Part shown: piece after piece, positions 50,873 to 58,898 of the stretch
How positions within the stretch are numbered: position 1 is the stretch's first letter
Layout: each line of letters begins with the position of its first letter
Source of the DNA: an uncultured Gemmatimonadales bacterium
GTDB taxonomy: Bacteria; Gemmatimonadota; Gemmatimonadetes; Gemmatimonadales; GWC2-71-9
Assembly (NCBI GenBank): GCA_963748035.1
Contig: CAVVHO010000003.1
Coordinates: forward strand, 646,500-710,499
Reading direction: 5' to 3'
DNA: 64,000 nt
Notes under the pieces: generated by a model
Database searches by the model: none
Seen by the model: the letters and a program-made list of their open reading frames with translations, nothing else
What the model was told of the DNA's origin: nothing
Program-made: the position numbers and the translations under genes

Positions 50873-53125
50873 TCAGAAGGTCGTGCTGATGCGCATCAGG
50901 AATGTACGACCCGCCCCTGGATTCTCGGCGTTCGTCTTGATCCGGCTCAGGAAGTTTGCGTACGCCTTGTCGAAGAGATTTCGCACGGCGAAGTCCACAT
51001 GGGGAGCATGAGGCCCGCCACCGAGCCCGAAACCCGTGCCGGCGTTGATCAGGGTGTAGGGCTCCGACTGATAGCCGCGGCCACCGAACGCGCCTGCGAA
51101 GAAGGCTGCCTCCGCTGGATCCAAACGCGTCTGCCTGGTATTGCTCTCTCCGCCCAGCGAGAGATAAGGATCGCGGACTAGTCCGTCGCGCGAAGCCTCA
51201 AGCCGTACCTCATAGGTCGCCCTGAAAGGCGGCATGGACGGGAGCGGATCGTCGTTGCTGGTGTTGGTGCCGCGGACGTAGTCCGCGGTGCCTTGGAAGT
51301 GCAGCCAGCGGGTGGGATGAAGTTGTCCCGCAACCTCGAAGCCCTGCAACCTCGCATCACCCTGGGTGACGTCATAGATCTCGAAGCCGGAGCCCGGATC
51401 GGTCGTTCCTGTGGGGACGGTGTAGATGTAATCGTTGATCCAGTTGACGAACGTACCGACTTCGAATGCGAGATTGGTCGTCTGAACCCGGATTGCCAGA
51501 TCACCGTTGAGAGATTTTTCGGTGCGGAGATTGGGGTTGCCCCGCTCGAACGCCACCGTGCCTTCATGTACGCCATTGGCGAAGAGATCGAAACTCGAGG
51601 GGGCCCGAAAGCCGCGTCCTACGTTCAGCACAAGTGCGGCGGGCTCCGCGAACTTGTACAGAATGCCCAGGTTCCCGGTAACGGAATTCCAACTCTGCGC
51701 GTCGGGGACCCCAGCGATGGTGGTATCTTCCAGTGCGAGGTGGCGGTAGTCGTACCGCGCCCCGACCGAGAGGTCCCAGCGCCCGCCGTGCAGCTGCTCG
51801 AATCCGAAGACCGCCAGGCCGCTTGTCTGGCTGTTGGGAATCAGGGTCTCGTTGCCGAATTTCTCGAATTCGGTTCGCATCCCGCTTACACCGAAGACTC
51901 CCGACAGCGACCCAATCGGCGCTTGGTGAAGGTGGGCGTCCAACGTGTAGTTGTGTGACAGGAGTCCGAGCGATACGTCGCTGGTGGTGTCATCTTCGAA
52001 CTCGCGCCGTCGATTACGCTCGAAGCCTGCACTCACCTCAAGCCGTGATCCCCCGACCGGGAAGAGGCCATCGAGCCGTGCCCGTGTCGCTGCGATCCGT
52101 TGCGTGGGCGTAGCCGCCGGATCCTCATCGGTGAGTGAAATCCGCTCATCCCGTTGGGCGAACGAGGCGGCGAGGTTTCCCCAGTCGCCTCGATCGCCTA
52201 CAGCGAAGCTTCCGCCGAGGGCGCGGTTGCCGCTGTTCCAGAGGGTGTAATCCGGAGTTTTGACATTGCCGGCCGAGCGGCCGCTCACAGTTGCGCGGAA
52301 GCCGAGACCACCGCTCGCACCGTTGACGAGGAGAGCGCCGACTGGCTCTCGCGCGTTGCTTGAATACGAAGCGGTTGCCTCGCCGTCGATCGTCGACTTC
52401 CCCGGCTCCGTAGAAGGCAACGCCCGTGGAATGACGTTCACGACGCCACCGAGCGCGTCGGATCCGTACAGAACACTGGCGGGTCCGCGAATCACCTCGA
52501 TGCGATCAGCGAGTGCGGTCTCGATGTTGGGTCCGTGCTCGTCGCCCCACTGCTGGGTCTCCATCCGCTGACCGTTGTCTAGCACCAAGACACGATTTGA
52601 AGTCAATCCGCGAATCACCGGCTTTCCAATCCCCTGACCGGTACTCAGGCTGTGGACGCCGGCGACCTGATTGAGGGTCTCGCCCAAGCTGGGGGCCTGC
52701 GCACCGCTCAGGTCGGCACCTTGAATGACGGCAGTAGGCTGGGGGGAGACAAGCGGATCAATGGTCGAGGTGGTGGCCGTGACTTGGATCGGGGGCAGCT
52801 CGACCAGCGATGGCTTGAGGGTGAAATCCTGGTTCAGGTCCTGATTCGCAAGGCGAAGAGCTCGGACCTGCGGGGCATAGCCGATGGCGGAAACGGAAAA
52901 GGTAAACACCCCTGCGGGCAGGCCTGGCACAGTGTAACGACCCTCGACGTCGGTCAGGACGACACGCCCGGCTTCGACGACCGCGATGCGCGCGGCGAAG
53001 AGAGGCGTGCCGTCGGTTGAGGTAACGCGGCCGGCGACGGTTGCGCCCGGAAGGGACGCGGCAGGTTGAAGCGGTGTGGAGAAGGCTGTGAGCGCGAGCA
53101 ACGCGCTTGTGAGACTCGCTAGCAT
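50873..53125 (-). CDS. TonB-dependent receptor, ZnuD-like
   Basis: N-terminal carboxypeptidase-like domain; plug KPVIRGL...QQWGDEHG...RIEVIRGPASVLYGS; DLFANGVHEGT..FERGNPNL; terminal Phe; SD GAGGAG. Confidence 0.9.
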   Translation of the reverse strand: MLASLTSALLALTAFSTPLQPAASLPGATVAGRVTSTDGTPLFAARIAVVEAGRVVLTDVEGRYTVPGLPAGVFTFSVSAIGYAPQVRALRLANQDLNQDFTLKPSLVELPPIQVTATTSTIDPLVSPQPTAVIQGADLSGAQAPSLGETLNQVAGVHSLSTGQGIGKPVIRGLTSNRVLVLDNGQRMETQQWGDEHGPNIETALADRIEVIRGPASVLYGSDALGGVVNVIPRALPSTEPGKSTIDGEATASYSSNAREPVGALLVNGASGGLGFRATVSGRSAGNVKTPDYTLWNSGNRALGGSFAVGDRGDWGNLAASFAQRDERISLTDEDPAATPTQRIAATRARLDGLFPVGGSRLEVSAGFERNRRREFEDDTTSDVSLGLLSHNYTLDAHLHQAPIGSLSGVFGVSGMRTEFEKFGNETLIPNSQTSGLAVFGFEQLHGGRWDLSVGARYDYRHLALEDTTIAGVPDAQSWNSVTGNLGILYKFAEPAALVLNVGRGFRAPSSFDLFANGVHEGTVAFERGNPNLRTEKSLNGDLAIRVQTTNLAFEVGTFVNWINDYIYTVPTGTTDPGSGFEIYDVTQGDARLQGFEVAGQLHPTRWLHFQGTADYVRGTNTSNDDPLPSMPPFRATYEVRLEASRDGLVRDPYLSLGGESNTRQTRLDPAEAAFFAGAFGGRGYQSEPYTLINAGTGFGLGGGPHAPHVDFAVRNLFDKAYANFLSRIKTNAENPGAGRTFLMRISTTF

Positions 53126-53205
53126 GGCTGCTCCTCAGAACTGGCGTTCGCCTCCGGCACATGCGTTTCCGGAGGTAGGCTCGGGATCTTGAATAGATTC
53201 GCAAG

Positions 53206-53544
53206 TCAGCCGAACGAGGGAGGAGCGCGAGACCGGTAGGAGGGCTGGTGACGGACTGAGGGATGCAGTTGGGGCGTCGGGAATACGGATTTCAGCCCGT
53301 AGGCCGGATGGAAGGCCGTTTCGGTGGCGGCGGCTTCAGTTGCACGCAGATCAGCGAGCAATCGGTTGAGCGGGCAGTGACCACCGTGGTCGCTGGAACC
53401 ACCCCGGCTCTCAAAGTGGACACGCTCCTCCTGGGGTTTGCCGCGGTGCTCGAGGAGAAGGTCGGCCGCTGGCAGCCCAAAGTTCCCCGCGACGTAGGCG
53501 AACGCGAGAACGAGGATTCGGGGTCGAGCTGCCATGTCGTGCAT
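53206..53544 (-). CDS. RAPP-terminated leader protein (DUF2946/CruR-like uORF) 1
   Basis: 112 aa: hydrophobic anchor, GNFGLPAADLLLEH, HGGHCPL, C-terminal SRAPPSFG; starts 4 nt after the permease stop and ends 80 nt before the TonB receptor. Confidence 0.75.
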   Translation of the reverse strand: MHDMAARPRILVLAFAYVAGNFGLPAADLLLEHRGKPQEERVHFESRGGSSDHGGHCPLNRLLADLRATEAAATETAFHPAYGLKSVFPTPQLHPSVRHQPSYRSRAPPSFG

Positions 53545-53547
53545 ATG

Positions 53548-54393
53548 CTAAGTACCGGGCACGCCTGATTTGAGCACCTTGCGACCGAGGAACGCGAGGA
53601 GGAGCAAAAGCCCGAAGACGCAAACCTCCACCGGTCCGGTGGGCAGGTCCTTCCAGAATGACACGCCGATGCCCAGTGCCGAGGCTAAGACGCCGGCGAC
53701 CCATGCGATGATTGCGAGGAGGCCGCGACGCCGAGTGAACTGAAACGCGATGGCTGCCGGGATCACCAGGAACGAGAAGACGAGCAGCACGCCGACGATT
53801 GGCACTGAGAAGGTGATCACGACGCCGAAGCTCAGATAGAACCAGAAATCCCACCAGCGGAGTTTCCAGCCGTGCGCGGCGGCCTGCTCCGGCTCGAACG
53901 AAATGGTAAGGAATTTCCGTCTGAGAACCCAATGAAACAGGCCCACGATCGTATACACGGCGGCGAGACGACCGATCGCGGGCCAGCCCACCCATAGCAG
54001 GCTTCCCACCAGAATGTCCTTGATGGCCTCCCCACCTCTCGGTGATCGATCGGCGACCAGGATGGCGGCGGCCGAGGCGACTACATACACGATGCCAATG
54101 ATGGCCTCCTGCGGCACCCTGCCCTGACCGTGCTCCGAACGTGTCGCGGCGAAAACCGCAGCGCCGGCGGTTGTGAACCCGAAGGCGTAGACGAAGGACA
54201 TCGCGGAACCGGAGTCGGCGCCAACGAGGATCGCGACCGTGGAGCCGAGCGCGGCGACCTGGGCGAGCGCCAGGTCCACGAAGATGACTTCTCGCGCCAG
54301 GACGTGAAGTCCGAGGTAGGAATGGACTGCGACGATCACCATGCAGGCTACCAGCGGCGCCAGCCAGAGGCTGTGGATCAGCTGAGCAAGCAT
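53548..54393 (-). CDS. Metal ABC transporter permease (ABC-3, ZnuB-like)
   Basis: HSYLGLHVLAREVIFVDLALAQVAALG, QEAIIGIVY, GSLLWV, VGVLLVFSFLVIPA; TGATG coupling to the SBP gene. Confidence 0.9.
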   Translation of the reverse strand: MLAQLIHSLWLAPLVACMVIVAVHSYLGLHVLAREVIFVDLALAQVAALGSTVAILVGADSGSAMSFVYAFGFTTAGAAVFAATRSEHGQGRVPQEAIIGIVYVVASAAAILVADRSPRGGEAIKDILVGSLLWVGWPAIGRLAAVYTIVGLFHWVLRRKFLTISFEPEQAAAHGWKLRWWDFWFYLSFGVVITFSVPIVGVLLVFSFLVIPAAIAFQFTRRRGLLAIIAWVAGVLASALGIGVSFWKDLPTGPVEVCVFGLLLLLAFLGRKVLKSGVPGT

Positions 54394-55433
54394 CAGGAAG
54401 CTCCCTCGCGGAACCCGGCTACGAGGCCATTGATCCAGGCGTTCATCAGATCGAAGTAGGTCTCCACGCCCGGGGCGCCATGGGTATTCTCGGGAACGAT
54501 GACCGCGTGAGCGCCGGTCTTCTCCGCAACCTGCTGAATCTGGTTGTGGTCGAAATAGTTCGAGGCGAAGAGCAGCGGGATCTTCCGCTCCTTCATGAGG
54601 GCGATCACCTCTTCGACATGTCTGGGGGTAGGCGGAATCCCCGGCTTGGCCTCGATGTAAGTGGCGCAGGTGACCTGAAAACGATGGCTGAAGTAGGCCC
54701 ACTCCTTGTGGTAACAGGCGATTTCCTTCCCCCGGAATGTCTCGCTGGTCTTGAGCCAACCGCCGAGTCGGTCGAGCAACGGCTTGCCCTGATATTTCGT
54801 AGCGGCCAGGAAGGAGGAAAGCTTGTCGCTCTTGAGGAGATCGAGGGCGGTGGCCGGCGTCAGGATCCCGACCAGTTCGGCGCCCATGGTGGCTTCGAGG
54901 ATTCGCTTCTCGAAATCCTGTTCCCGGCCGGCGAAAAAAGCCGCCTCACTTGGGGCCACGCGCTGCAGGCCGGTGAGAATATTCCGGGCGATGATGATGG
55001 CGTTCAGTGGGTCGGTATGAATGTGCGGGTTGCCATCGGCATGAATGTCACCCTCGCTGCGGTTCAGCGATGTCGGCACCTCCAGGAGCGTGATGCCGGT
55101 GTACGCGGTGACATACCCGGGGCCACCCTCTGACACCTTGCGGTTGTTGGCACGATCGAGGAGGGCAGGGACCCAGAGCTCGAGATCAAGGCCGGTGGTG
55201 ACGAACAGATCCGCGTCCCGGAGCACAGCGACGAAGCTGGGCTTGGGCTGAACAAAATGCGGATCCTCATCCCCCTGGGCGATTGAGGTCACGGTCCCCC
55301 GGTCGCCGGCGATTTCGCGCGCGATGGCGCCGTAGGTGGTGAGGCTGGTAACGATCTTGAGCGGCGGCTCGGCGACTCGGCGGCTCGGCGGCTCAGGGGA
55401 GAGCGTCGCAAGGATCAGGGCCAGGAGCAACAT
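54393..55433 (-). CDS. Metal ABC substrate-binding protein (cluster A-I, ZnuA-like)
   Basis: DPHFVQPKPS, GDIHADGNPH, YHKEWAYF, EAKPGIPPT. Confidence 0.9.
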   Translation of the reverse strand: MLLLALILATLSPEPPSRRVAEPPLKIVTSLTTYGAIAREIAGDRGTVTSIAQGDEDPHFVQPKPSFVAVLRDADLFVTTGLDLELWVPALLDRANNRKVSEGGPGYVTAYTGITLLEVPTSLNRSEGDIHADGNPHIHTDPLNAIIIARNILTGLQRVAPSEAAFFAGREQDFEKRILEATMGAELVGILTPATALDLLKSDKLSSFLAATKYQGKPLLDRLGGWLKTSETFRGKEIACYHKEWAYFSHRFQVTCATYIEAKPGIPPTPRHVEEVIALMKERKIPLLFASNYFDHNQIQQVAEKTGAHAVIVPENTHGAPGVETYFDLMNAWINGLVAGFREGAS

Positions 55434-55446
55434 TCTGTCTACCTTT

Positions 55447-55474
55447 CGGCTAACGGCTAACGGCTAACGGCTTA
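55447..55474. repeat. Heptamer tandem repeat (CGGCTAA)x3 + CGGCTTA
   Basis: Read directly in the spacer between the OMP and SBP genes. Confidence 0.9.
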
Positions 55475-55480
55475 CGATCC

Positions 55481-56833
55481 TCAGTATGTCTCATGCTTGT
55501 GCGGACCCATGGCGAATACGGCCTGCAGCAGCAACTGGTCTTGATTGCCTGCGACGCTGTCGTGGTGATGCTGGCCCTCTAGGCGCAGGAAGACGAATTC
55601 GCTCTCCCACCATGTGATCGTCGGTGAGATCTGCCATTCCGTCGAAAACGGGCCTCTGGCGGCCTCGACGTAGTCGTACCGACCACCGAGGATCCAGCGC
55701 TGGCTCAGGCGGGCGGTCAGGTCAACGAAGGCGCCATAGCGCGTTGTCTGGACTCCGAGTTCATGTGCCCGCAACCGGTACCCCTCCATCCGCAAGGTGA
55801 CTTCCTTGCGGGTGCCCGCATTAGGCGGGCGCCAGGTTAACCGGAGGTCGGCGCCGAGCACTCGTCCGCGGACGCTATCCGCGTTGTCACCGCCCAGCGC
55901 GGTGAAGCCGATCTGGCCATAGGTGCTGCGGGAGAGTTGCCAGAAGTTCTGCACCCGCCCGAGCAGGGTGCCGTGGTCACCGGTACCGTAGAGCGGCTGG
56001 CTCTCGGCGGTGGTTCCCTGCAACCAGATCTCGTGGGTGCCACCACCGATTGACAGCGGGAGCGTGGTGTAAAGCGAAACCCCGGCGCCCGACAACCCCT
56101 CGTCTCCGAGGAATCGGCGGTAGACCAGAGGGTATTCGGACTCCGGAAGAGCGTGCAGATGCCAGCGATTAAGGTCGCCGATCTGTTCACGGAAGAGCCC
56201 GACGTCGGCCCGGAGGCGACCCGGAAGCCCGGTCCAGTACAAGTACCCCTCCTCGACGCCGACAGCGTCGTGCTCAAAGGTCAGGACCACCTTGGCATTG
56301 GAGTAAGGGTCCAGCGTGGACTGGAGTGCGACTTCGAACTCGCGTGCATCACCCCGCAGACCATCGTGCCGCTGCCCGCCAAGCCGGATGTCGCCGGTCG
56401 CGCTGATCTCCGGATTCATGGCTGAGCCGCTCCGTTGGCGGCCCACGAACTTGGTTTCACCGCTGGGGGTCGTGTCCGGCGGCGCCCCCGGTGGCGCGCC
56501 CGTCGCGGCGGCGGCCGCTGCCCTGAGGGCCGCTAGGTCATCGCCACCGGTAGTGTCGGTCGGCTGCGCCACGGCTTGCCGACACCGTTGCGCGATCAGC
56601 CGTTCGAGGCGCGCGCTCAAATCGGCAATGGCCCGATGCAATGAATCCGCACCGGCGGGGATGCTCAGCGCCGGACCGGTGGGGCAGGAGCCGCGCTCCA
56701 GCGAATCCAGTCGAGTTGTCAGTCGTTCAAGCAGGCGCTGGTTGGTGTTCGCGGGCTGCTGAGCGTGCAGGGGGACGGCCGTCAGGCCTGTCAGCCCTAT
56801 GAGGGATGTCCAGATGGCATTGTTGTGCCGCAT
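55481..56833 (-). CDS. Outer-membrane beta-barrel protein with N-terminal coiled coil and His-rich C-terminus
   Basis: Signal peptide; MNPEISATGD, VEEGY, GLFREQIGDLNRWHLHALP; C-terminal HHHDS and GPHKHETY; first gene before the SBP and permease. Confidence 0.75.
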   Translation of the reverse strand: MRHNNAIWTSLIGLTGLTAVPLHAQQPANTNQRLLERLTTRLDSLERGSCPTGPALSIPAGADSLHRAIADLSARLERLIAQRCRQAVAQPTDTTGGDDLAALRAAAAAATGAPPGAPPDTTPSGETKFVGRQRSGSAMNPEISATGDIRLGGQRHDGLRGDAREFEVALQSTLDPYSNAKVVLTFEHDAVGVEEGYLYWTGLPGRLRADVGLFREQIGDLNRWHLHALPESEYPLVYRRFLGDEGLSGAGVSLYTTLPLSIGGGTHEIWLQGTTAESQPLYGTGDHGTLLGRVQNFWQLSRSTYGQIGFTALGGDNADSVRGRVLGADLRLTWRPPNAGTRKEVTLRMEGYRLRAHELGVQTTRYGAFVDLTARLSQRWILGGRYDYVEAARGPFSTEWQISPTITWWESEFVFLRLEGQHHHDSVAGNQDQLLLQAVFAMGPHKHETY

Positions 56834-56901
56834 TTCAAATGACCCGTATCGCCCCGGAGGCCCGGTGGCGGAAAGGGGAAAGCGAGTTGTGTGAGCGCCA
56901 G

Positions 56902-57243
56902 TTAGGCGCGGAAGGGAGGAGCGCGGGAGGGGGGAAGAGTGGAGTCAGACCGTCCGGTCTGAGATTCGACCGCAACGATTGGAAGCACTGAGTCCGGCGG
57001 CGTGACTTGCGCGGAGACGGCTTGGGAGACCAGGCACCCATCCGTCACGGCTGGCTGCTGAAGCGGGCACACCTGGGCGTGGGTAGGCTTCCCGCCCAGG
57101 TCGACGAGGGTCCGCTCCGAAACAGCTGCCCCGGGCTGGCCGTGGAACACCAGACTGTCGAACAACGGCAGGCCGAAGCCCCCGACCAACAGGGCGAGCA
57201 GCAGGGTAAGGGCCCGTACGCGGACGATCAGGGACCGGCTCAT
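56902..57243 (-). CDS. RAPP-terminated leader protein (DUF2946/CruR-like uORF) 2
   Basis: 113 aa from ATG 57243: hydrophobic anchor, GGFGLPLFDSLVFH, HAQVCPL, C-terminal SRAPPFRA; ends 68 nt before the OMP gene. Confidence 0.75.
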   Translation of the reverse strand: MSRSLIVRVRALTLLLALLVGGFGLPLFDSLVFHGQPGAAVSERTLVDLGGKPTHAQVCPLQQPAVTDGCLVSQAVSAQVTPPDSVLPIVAVESQTGRSDSTLPPSRAPPFRA

Positions 57244-57296
57244 CGTAGGATGAAGGTAGTAGGGGGGTCCGGGGTCCGCGAGGCCACCGGGGGGTC

Positions 57297-58898
57297 TCAG
57301 GGCCGGGCCTCGAGGATCGGGTTTACCCTCGGATACTCCGCGCTGATGCCGGGGCGCCGGCTGGGACCTTCGGCGGGTAAAATGAACCAGAAGGTCGCAC
57401 CGGTGCCGTAAATGGACTCGCATCCGATCGTTCCACCATGCATTTCGACGAATCTCCGAGCGAGCGCGAGCCCCAAGCCCGTCCCCTGCTGCTGCCGGCT
57501 GGCCGAACTGTCCACCTGGCTGAACTCGTGAAACAGTTTCGGCATGTCCTCCTGCTTTATCCCAATTCCGCTGTCTTGCACCGAGACCCAGAGGGCATCG
57601 CGCGAGACGAGGCGGACCGCCTCGCCGGGTGAGTCGACCGGAAGCGGAAGGGGTGCCCGTGTCGCGATAGCCGAGACGATCATCTGACCGCTTTGCGGAG
57701 TGAACTTGGAGGCGTTGGAAAGCAGGTTGAACAGGATTTGCCTTATCCGCGTGCCATCAGCCAGCACCGGGAGCGGTTGGGTACCGATCTCGAGCTTGCA
57801 CTCCTGCTGCTTGGAGGAGCGGAGCGGTGCGGTATCGGTGACGGCGCCAAGAATGAGCTCACGCAGGTCACTGGGCGCGAGGATGAGCGTCATCCGGCCG
57901 GCCTCGATCTTGGAGAGGTCCAACACGCTGTTGATTAGGCCGAGCAGGTGCTGACCGTTGCGGAGGATGGAGTCGAGGAACTCGCGCTGGGTCTCATTGA
58001 CCTGTCCGAGTTCCTCCGTGAGCAGCAAGTCGGAGAAGCCGTTGATGGCGTTGAGCGGAGTGCGGAGCTCATGCGACATATTGGCGAGGAATTGGCTCTT
58101 GAGCTCTGTGGCCCGCTGCAGCTCGCGATTCTTCGCGGCCAGGACCTCTTCTTTGCGACGGCTCTCCTCCAGCACATGGGCGCGGTCGAGCCCGACGACG
58201 ACCTGGTCGCCCAAGGTCTGGAGCAAATGCACATCAGCATCGGTGAACGGCTGTCCATCACGGCGATTGACCACCGCGAGAACGCCAATGACCAGGCCGG
58301 CCGAACGGAGCGGGACGGCGACAATGGTCTTGAGCGGCAGGGCCGATAAGGGATAATTCCGCGGGTCCGCCGCCATGTCCGGAGAGGTGAGGGCGGTCTC
58401 ATTCGTCACTACCCAGCCTAACAGGGAATTGTCCACCGGGAGCAGTTGGTGGCGGGTTGCCGCGATAGGCCCCGCCCCGGCCACAATTCGGACGAACCGA
58501 CCCTCCTCGACGACGAAACCGATGGCCGCGCCATCGCTGGCCAGCAGGTCTGCTGCTGCCTCCGTCACGACTTGCAGCACCTGGTCCAGGTTCTCCCCCG
58601 AAACCATGGCTTCGGCGACCCTCCGGAGCCAGTTCAGCTCGCGGTCGCGCAGTTGAACGCGGGACTCGGCGTCTCGCTGCCTCTCCTCACGCCGCAACCG
58701 GTCGCGACTGACCAGCCCGAGGCCGATGCCCATGAGGGTGATCGCCCCCGCCAGCAGCCCCCAGCCGAACGACACCCCACGGCCAACAAGCCACGCTCCC
58801 GCGACGCCCGCGGGCAGCGCCGTCAGGAGCAGTGGAGTCGCCCGGGGGATGATGGCCCGGGAAGATCGCACTGCTCTGGGGGGCGTAGGAGGCGTCAT
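57297..58898 (-). CDS. Membrane GAF-sensor histidine kinase (no receiver domain)
   Basis: Two TMs, GAF, FLANMSHELRTPL, N box NLLSNASKF, DSGIG, GTGLGL. Confidence 0.93.
   Translation of the reverse strand: MTPPTPPRAVRSSRAIIPRATPLLLTALPAGVAGAWLVGRGVSFGWGLLAGAITLMGIGLGLVSRDRLRREERQRDAESRVQLRDRELNWLRRVAEAMVSGENLDQVLQVVTEAAADLLASDGAAIGFVVEEGRFVRIVAGAGPIAATRHQLLPVDNSLLGWVVTNETALTSPDMAADPRNYPLSALPLKTIVAVPLRSAGLVIGVLAVVNRRDGQPFTDADVHLLQTLGDQVVVGLDRAHVLEESRRKEEVLAAKNRELQRATELKSQFLANMSHELRTPLNAINGFSDLLLTEELGQVNETQREFLDSILRNGQHLLGLINSVLDLSKIEAGRMTLILAPSDLRELILGAVTDTAPLRSSKQQECKLEIGTQPLPVLADGTRIRQILFNLLSNASKFTPQSGQMIVSAIATRAPLPLPVDSPGEAVRLVSRDALWVSVQDSGIGIKQEDMPKLFHEFSQVDSSASRQQQGTGLGLALARRFVEMHGGTIGCESIYGTGATFWFILPAEGPSRRPGISAEYPRVNPILEARP

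Follow-up and report, generated by a model that had tools for sequence, protein, structure and literature searches.

Can the codons on which an arrest peptide would halt its own ribosome also serve as the RNA segment that hides the ribosome-binding site of the gene behind it? This question is raised by a small open reading frame, uORF1, that precedes a TonB-dependent receptor gene in an uncultured Gemmatimonadales bacterium, within the 64,000-nucleotide stretch of DNA analyzed here (the window). The initial annotation had proposed that the Ala-Pro-Pro codons near the end of uORF1 are the anti-Shine-Dalgarno (anti-SD) sequence of the receptor gene, and that a ribosome paused on the residues RAPP would free the Shine-Dalgarno (SD) sequence. 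The letters and positions on which that proposal was built all proved correct when the sequence was read again: on the minus strand, GCUCCUC (53226-53220) is exactly complementary to GAGGAGC (53136-53130), and the two are 83 nt apart. The features discussed below are collected in Table 1.

Table 1. Features of the uORF1 locus and of the paralogous leader uORF2, in window positions.
Feature	Position	Strand	Remarks
TonB-dependent receptor gene	50873..53125	-	CarboxypepD_reg, Plug and barrel, from domain matches
Shine-Dalgarno GAGGAG(C) of the receptor gene	53130..53136	-	5 nt 5' of the ATG; agcc follows GAGGAGC, ATG at 53125
Intergenic hairpin CCUCCGG-N11-CCGGAGG	53151..53175	-	7 bp, 11-nt loop; arms CCUCCGG 53175-53169 and CCGGAGG 53157-53151, between anti-SD and SD; enclosed by the predicted long-range helix
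Tail codons SFG and UGA stop	53206..53217	-	In many relatives the anti-SD sits here, not in the Pro-Pro codons
Putative RAPP arrest codons CGC GCU CCU CCC	53218..53229	-	Read from the sequence; RAPP/RGPP kept in 159 loci
Anti-SD GCUCCUC	53220..53226	-	Spans the Ala codon, the first Pro codon and base 1 of the second Pro codon
C-rich, G-poor tract	53209..53283	-	Possible rut site; -60..+14 from the P-site
uORF1, 112-aa leader	53206..53544	-	N-terminal hydrophobic putative anchor, DHGGHC His/Cys motif, C-terminal SRAPPSFG
Internal GAGGAGC	53424..53430	-	Codons Glu-Glu-Arg of uORF1; identical to the receptor SD 7-mer
uORF2, 113-aa leader	56902..57243	-	Paralogous to uORF1; ends SRAPPFRA; upstream of a 450-aa outer-membrane protein gene

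uORF1, its operon and its relatives

uORF1 starts 3 nt past the stop codon of an ABC-3 permease gene, and farther upstream of the permease lie a gene for a ZnuA-like binding protein and genes for outer-membrane proteins. On its 3' side, the leader is directly followed by a metal-homeostasis gene, that of the TonB-dependent receptor, beyond which come genes for PCuAC, CopC and CopD. Among named NCBIfam models, those for heme/hemoglobin receptors and for the zinc-piracy receptor ZnuD match the receptor best, all with scores far below their cut-offs. The receptor N-terminus (ML..L..ALL) is conserved in orthologs. The metal concerned is ambiguous, with ZnuA, the ABC-3 permease and the ZnuD-like receptor pointing to zinc, and PCuAC, CopC and CopD to copper.

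The leader itself begins with a hydrophobic N-terminal stretch, RILVLAFAYVAGNFGLP, conserved in an alignment of ten close relatives (A1), and ends with RAPP a few codons before the stop (SRAPPSFG*). It has no CXXC or CxxxC motif; the window has SSDHGGHC with one Cys, and the relatives have GGCxDHxxHC. Within A1, H56 and C57 are invariant and H53 is nearly so. Between the last Cys and the RAPP Arg, the spacing is nearly fixed, at 48-49 residues for the 25th through 90th percentiles of 117 loci. In uORF1 this interval runs from C57 to R106 (about 53376-53227), and its 49 residues would put the His/Cys motif immediately beyond the exit tunnel of an arrested ribosome. We infer that this motif senses metal (Zn or Cu) and that RAPP arrests ribosomes in this organism; by analogy with CruR, metal binding would release the arrest, and the receptor would be made when metal is scarce.

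Against Pfam DUF2946 (PF11162), uORF1 scored 17.3 bits (E 0.0083), below the gathering score of 23.7, and just two of the ten close relatives gave DUF2946 matches at E<0.1. A DUF2946 search of the whole genome at E<=0.01 returned no hit, and control genomes likewise returned no loci. The profile of A1, searched against 401 family genomes, found uORF1 homologs in 141 of them, and these relatives fall in the Gemmatimonadales/Gemmatimonadaceae. For comparison 140 further loci were collected, and a scan of genome contigs gave six loci that were all within the collected set. An R[AG]PP ending is present in 159 loci (RAPP in 152, RGPP in 7), followed by a tail of one to five residues in 157 of the 159 and of four residues in 93. 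The gene downstream resembles the receptor of the window in 60 loci and its outer-membrane protein in 55, and is of another kind in 44. Judged by sequence, these CruR/CutF-like leaders constitute a large putative family in the Gemmatimonadaceae that Pfam does not recognize as DUF2946.

In one genus, 12 loci (L061, L063, L079, L086, L087, L089, L090, L094, L097, L099, L104 and L113) have a leader that ends in RAPPA with TGA immediately after it, upstream of an outer-membrane protein gene with a very strong GAGGAGG only 3 nt from the ATG. The TGA is reported as an in-frame stop in this group because the profile match extends past it.

Predicted pairing at the window locus

On the minus strand, the 3' end of uORF1 reads tac cgg tct CGC GCT CCT CCC tcg ttc ggc tga (Y R S R A P P S F G *). 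By analogy with ApdA, ApdP and CruR (PMC10951233; PMC12992588), the codon CCU (53223-53221) would occupy the P-site and CCC (53220-53218) the A-site during arrest. The anti-SD spans -3..+3 relative to the P-site nucleotide, and a ribosome arrested on RAPP must therefore keep it single-stranded. Both the exact complementarity and the position of the anti-SD within the stalled footprint are plain features of the locus. As an isolated duplex, the R-A-P-P codons and the SD region give -15.5 kcal/mol, with 9 bp and one bulge. The window contains 32 copies of GCTCCTC when both strands are counted, which corresponds to a few per cent chance of a match within 100 nt, and the bare 7-mer match is weak evidence for that reason. 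The caveat entered in the initial annotation, that Pro-Pro codons are inherently partly complementary to GGAGG and that only 7 bp pair, is justified for the 7-mer alone, but the recoding, swap and conservation results given below exceed chance.

The minimum free energy fold of 53260-53100 includes the long-range helix, extended by CUCGC/GCGAG past the start codon, and overall this region is not more stable than its dinucleotide shuffles (z -0.33). In local folds with contexts of 170-254 nt, the 7 bp helix has a mean probability of 0.98. The pairing of the SD with the stall segment reaches 0.994, compared with a mean of 0.047 for synonymous recodings, none of 40 attaining the observed value; when the segment was swapped for those of other family members, 2.5% of the segments did so.

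Folding with and without a ribosome footprint, a check proposed in the initial annotation, was modeled with the first Pro codon in the P-site and positions -12..+14 forced unpaired. The cost of opening the SD through the AUG falls from 11.7 kcal/mol in the free RNA to 6.9 kcal/mol under the stalled footprint, a difference of 4.8 kcal/mol that was matched by none of 30 recodings. With the footprint imposed, the SD still pairs with other C/U-rich stretches (0.88 here, 0.82 as the mean across loci), for example with CCCUC at about -32 in the window. What the model predicts is accordingly a shift in stability and not an all-or-none switch. The idea that a RAPP-paused ribosome frees the SD therefore stands in silico as regards sequestration of the SD by the stall site and the effect of the footprint, but not as an all-or-none release.

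The predicted fold also varies with the sequence context supplied. When the whole of uORF1 is folded as naked RNA, the anti-SD moves to the internal GAGGAGC and the helix probability is 0.002, with the SD remaining paired elsewhere (0.92). The margin in favor of this alternative, 3.6 of 165 kcal/mol, does not exceed the error of the model; in a 1-kb context the helix probability is 0.54. An erm-like three-segment switch operating via the internal GAGGAGC (53430-53424) was considered and dropped, since its Glu-Glu codons are not conserved among orthologs, and the internal copy is for the same reason probably a chance occurrence. A terminator and promoter scan found nothing, the spacer having no intrinsic terminator, and an Rfam search of 52900-57400 found no known RNA family. 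The intergenic hairpin has no U-tract and is accordingly not terminator-like. The sequencing runs that contain this sequence are DNA metagenomes only.

Comparison with the closest relative, a metagenome contig (L176) with a leader of 77% amino acid identity to uORF1, bears on both arms of the predicted helix. The gene order ZnuA-permease-uORF-receptor is retained there. Four-fold divergence between the window and this contig is 0.44 in the receptor gene and 16 of 44 sites in leader codons 1-97, compared with one change at 11 four-fold sites in the last 15 leader codons. Similarly, the first 43 nt of the spacer carry 14 changes and the 37 nt before the ATG are identical. The sole change in the hairpin stem, C to U, keeps the pairing as G.U. 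This comparison shows nucleotide-level conservation of both arms of the predicted helix, at synonymous as well as non-coding sites. In the same contig (654-1498), the ABC-3 permease is called as two ORFs of 186 and 90 aa, a frameshift or assembly error.

The hairpin between anti-SD and SD, which the initial annotation had also described, was borne out both by this retained stem and by the wider family. Family spacers are mostly 65-100 nt long, and their interiors fold better than shuffles (mean z -1.4). In nearly every one of them, a GC-rich hairpin that lacks a U-tract stands some 15-25 nt 5' of the SD, and in the closest relatives the hairpin is followed by a conserved GUUCUGGAGG-like stretch. 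The spacer hairpin could join the helix arms, pause transcription or protect the RNA.

Predicted pairing and codon choice across the family

Pairing was tested in 117 Gemmatimonadaceae-family loci, dereplicated by shared 8-mers and having a credible start 35-135 nt downstream. In the recoding null, which keeps the amino acids, the segment from three codons before the Arg through the stop was rebuilt with codons sampled at their frequencies in the downstream genes. The swap null exchanges segments between loci and keeps the codon habits of the family. Folded in a context of -45 to +21, the SD core paired with the stall segment at a probability of 0.50, compared with 0.18 after recoding (117 loci; Wilcoxon p 1e-12, a value that, like those below, overstates independence because the loci are related). 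By class of downstream gene, observed and recoded values were 0.69 and 0.19 for receptors, 0.47 and 0.19 for outer-membrane proteins, and 0.23 and 0.13 for other genes. The pairing probability exceeded 0.5 in only 51 of 89 receptor/porin-class loci and in 4 of 28 loci with other downstream genes. Segment swaps among the 89 receptor/porin-class loci gave 0.28, compared with 0.58 observed (p 4e-9).

The position of the pairing is also specific. When 120 nt of upstream coding context was supplied, the predicted partner of the SD peaked at 0..+17 from the P-site, with a per-nucleotide probability of 0.011-0.035 in this interval and 0.0004-0.007 elsewhere, that is, 10-30 times background. The footprint lowered the SD-through-AUG opening energy by a mean of 1.9 kcal/mol, compared with 0.5 kcal/mol for recodings (p 1e-11). 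Simple duplex energies, computed for the stall segment against the last 25 nt 5' of the start, showed a small excess (-17.3 kcal/mol, with -16.2 and -15.0 kcal/mol for the nulls) and were replaced by SD-specific pairing probabilities, because the best duplex need not involve the SD.

Loci without CCU at the first Pro codon are predicted to pair equally well (0.57 vs 0.24, p 1.6e-7). In these loci, with CCA, CCG or CCC, the anti-SD lies in the tail codons and often reaches the stop codon, in many registers; examples are CCGCACGU/ACGUGCGG, GCCCUCUCUC/GAGAGAGGGC and GCUUCAUCUG/CAGAUGAGGC. The family rule is that the anti-SD lies anywhere between the P-site codon and the stop codon. The statement that the arrest codons are the anti-SD is accordingly true of uORF1 but does not extend to the family.

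An absence of complementarity in orthologs had been named in the initial annotation as evidence that would count against its proposal; instead, pairing recurs above both the recoding and the swap nulls. Covariation of the Ala-Pro-Pro codons with the SD, which it had also suggested checking, did not appear. RNAalifold on 18 aligned CCU-type loci returned an invariant 4-bp core, CUCC:GGAG, with no compensatory changes, and CCU was not associated with GGAGG-type SDs (Fisher p 0.67). Tests of covariation by alignment column are uninformative here, since the register of the helix shifts from locus to locus, and with no compensatory changes the support is statistical and not that of classical covariation. 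These comparisons show codon-level and locus-specific tuning of SD pairing across the family, and the complementarity of the SD with the stall site is a real feature at the level of sequence.

Codon choice at the arrest site follows a further pattern. Across the 159 loci, the first Pro codon is CCU in 45% and CCA in 25% (background 8% and 6.5%), and CCC in 6% (background 36%). In the related loci, the Arg codon is CGA in 28% (background 8.5%) and CGG in 6% (background 37%), and the Ala codons are GCU or GCA in 54% (background 14%). The bias at R, A and the first Pro is equally present in loci without predicted pairing. Together with the lack of association given above, this led us to reject a choice of CCU for the first Pro as a match to GGAGG.

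The paralogous uORF2 has arrest codons identical to those of uORF1 (CGC GCU CCU CCC). Its downstream gene has a weak SD, predicted pairing is absent (0.10) and the footprint has no favorable effect, which suggests that this leader may use another mechanism such as Rho. As non-pairing loci show the same codon bias and uORF2 the same codons, the SD does not account for the rare codons; they may serve to avoid a slippery CCC-C at the P-site or may reflect a tRNA preference.

A broader reading, which we consider doubtful, is that the last six to eight codons carry both an arrest-peptide code and an anti-SD that co-evolves with its own ribosome-binding site, and in addition an SD-independent codon rule (for the P-site Pro, CCU or CCA, with CCC hardly ever used; for Arg, CGC or CGA, with CGG hardly ever used; for Ala, an excess of GCU and GCA), such that arrest strength or frame maintenance would depend on the codon or tRNA isoacceptor. 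If true, this dependence at RAPP would be a layer absent from current models of RAPP arrest.

Proposed stall-operated unmasking, its alternatives and known arrest leaders

We consider it fairly probable that uORF1 is a CruR/CutF-like metal-sensing arrest leader whose 3' end doubles as the anti-SD of the receptor gene, with unmasking operated by the stall. In free mRNA, the segment from the Ala/Pro codons to the stop would pair across the roughly 80-nt structured spacer and mask the SD region. During arrest, the P-site would hold CCU with peptidyl-RAP-tRNA and the A-site CCC with Pro-tRNA, which places GCUCCUC inside the decoding center; the arrested ribosome would block the SD-proximal end of the helix, and 30S subunits would initiate on the receptor gene. 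Upon release of the arrest, the ribosome would terminate four codons on and depart, the helix would re-form and the receptor gene would be turned off. Because the helix is antiparallel, the SD would pair with the 5' end of the arm, comprising the E-, P- and A-site codons and the first tail codons, and the stop-codon end of the arm would pair about 20 nt upstream of the ATG. The toeprint of a ribosome lies at about +16 and its helicase acts at about +11, so that the arrested ribosome would hold the SD-pairing part of the arm single-stranded.

One alternative is Rho-dependent transcription attenuation, in which the arrested ribosome would shield a C-rich rut site and RNA polymerase would read into the receptor gene, SD pairing being secondary or irrelevant. 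Of the RAPP leaders upstream of TonB receptors, CruR of Bordetella, a DUF2946 leader with CXXC and RAPP, is alone in having been studied, and it works in this way: copper relieves the arrest, and Rho then terminates transcription before the TonB receptor gene (PMC9426467). CruR also has rare C/U-rich codons within an unstructured stretch (PMC9426467). In our family, C likewise exceeds G from -60 to +14 (family means of 46-59% C and 16-27% G), with the same trend in the window; the spacer is without an intrinsic terminator, and uORF2 carries the same codons without SD pairing. However, this C-richness follows in part from the Pro, Ser and Ala codons, part of the tract is predicted to pair with the SD, and the spacer is short (80 nt) and strongly structured, whereas that of CruR has 162 nt. 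Attenuation by Rho would also leave unexplained the locus-specific match of stall segments to their own SD regions, the use of tail codons where CCU is absent, and the conservation of the 37 nt before the ATG. We therefore regard it as unlikely, although it could act together with the translational switch.

Two further readings seem to us very improbable. Under plain translational coupling, the helix would tie the receptor to any ribosome passing the end of uORF1, and RAPP would serve another purpose or merely slow translation. The 5' arm extends through the stop codon in many loci, so that terminating ribosomes would also open it, and uORF1 is tightly coupled to the permease gene by the 3-nt gap. 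Against this stand the retention of RAPP/RGPP in 159 loci at a near-fixed spacing of 49 residues from the last Cys, the rank of these sequences as the strongest known arrest cores (PMC12992588), and the loss of downstream expression upon RAPP mutation in CruR (PMC9426467). Alternatively, the pairing might be a by-product of composition without function, if Pro-Pro codons and a C/U-rich tail pair any G-rich SD in a GC-rich genome. Under both nulls, the one keeping amino acids and the one keeping codon habits, pairing falls far short of the observed values, the partner profile has a sharp maximum at the stall site despite the 120 nt of C-rich coding sequence offered, and synonymous sites in the last 15 codons are conserved. 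The invariant CUCC:GGAG core without covariation, the fold that is not more stable than shuffles, the lack of association of CCU with GGAGG-type SDs, and the value of 0.28 still reached by swapped segments would nevertheless be consistent with such a by-product.

The preferred reading, stall-operated unmasking by a metal-sensing leader, is closest to the CutF-cutO system of Rhodobacter capsulatus. CutF is a DUF2946 leader, and a stem-loop masking the SD of cutO is melted by the stalled ribosome (PMC9973294). It is small and exported, senses a metal and carries a Pro-rich stalling motif at its C-terminus (PMC9973294, bioRxiv 10.1101/2025.02.05.636593), properties seen or proposed in uORF1 as well, and its spacer is, like that of uORF1, shorter than 100 nt. 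The two differ in the location of the anti-SD, which in CutF is part of an intergenic stem-loop and in uORF1 lies in the arrest and tail codons, with a predicted helix spanning the whole spacer. CutF carries CxxxC and a PPP-type motif in place of DHxxHC and RAPP, and its host belongs to a phylum other than the Gemmatimonadota. Copper prolongs stalling on CutF and induces a detoxifying oxidase, whereas uORF1 would control an uptake receptor, for which the opposite logic is expected.

CruR (Bp2923) of Bordetella pertussis, upstream of bfrG, resembles uORF1 in being a DUF2946-type leader with an N-terminal anchor (putative in uORF1) and a TonB-dependent receptor downstream (PMC9426467; PMC12992588). 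Both have a C-terminal RAPP and, at a distance that matters for function in CruR, a metal motif (putative in uORF1), and both have the C-rich, rare-codon stretch at the leader end. Unlike uORF1, with its sub-threshold DUF2946 match, single Cys accompanied by His residues and internal position after the permease gene, CruR matches Pfam DUF2946, has CXXC and stands first in its operon. Rho-dependent termination occurs in its spacer and SD masking is unreported, whereas SD masking is predicted for uORF1. No arrest cores are stronger than RAPP and RGPP, and the ribosome arrested on CruR has one Pro codon in its P-site and the other in its A-site (PMC12992588; PMC10951233). RAPP/RGPP leaders upstream of TonB receptors and copper genes have been catalogued across Gram-negative phyla, in a paper that contains no mention of mRNA structure (PMC12992588).

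Disruption of an SD-sequestering stem by an arrested ribosome is also the mode of action of SecM-secA, MifM-yidC2, VemP-secDF2 and uDF_RQH-secDF2 (PMC10987492). The RAG/P cores of the SecM type and the RAPP cores of ApdA and ApdP lie, as in uORF1, a few codons before the stop; SecM, MifM, VemP and uDF_RQH sense Sec/YidC activity by pulling force and not a metal. In the short cat, cmlA and erm leaders, stalling places the ribosome over one arm of an RBS-masking helix, as proposed for uORF1; these leaders differ in their drug-dependent stalling, their length of 8-20 codons and the lack of a nascent-chain sensor domain outside the tunnel. By prediction, uORF1 has the features of this SD-unmasking type, namely an SD sequestered in a helix and a stalled footprint that overlaps the SD-pairing arm.

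The principle is thus already known from SecM, MifM, VemP, uDF_RQH and CutF, the leader type was anticipated by the RAPP/RGPP catalogue, and no new category of regulation is opened. In the arrest-leader literature compared here (SecM/MifM/VemP/uDF_RQH, CutF and CruR), we found no case in which Pro-Pro arrest codons are the anti-SD. What is new is an anti-SD that is placed in the arrest and tail codons and not in an intergenic stem, a predicted helix that closes a whole structured spacer, and the way in which codon choice, with locus-specific matching, maintains this arrangement throughout a large family in the Gemmatimonadaceae. Peptide, codon and RNA pairing can thus all constrain the end of an arrest peptide gene at once, which bears on the annotation of arrest leaders and on the reading of their codon usage. 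This locus and about 50 related ones suggest that many RAPP/RGPP leaders use the solution of SecM and CutF instead of Rho.
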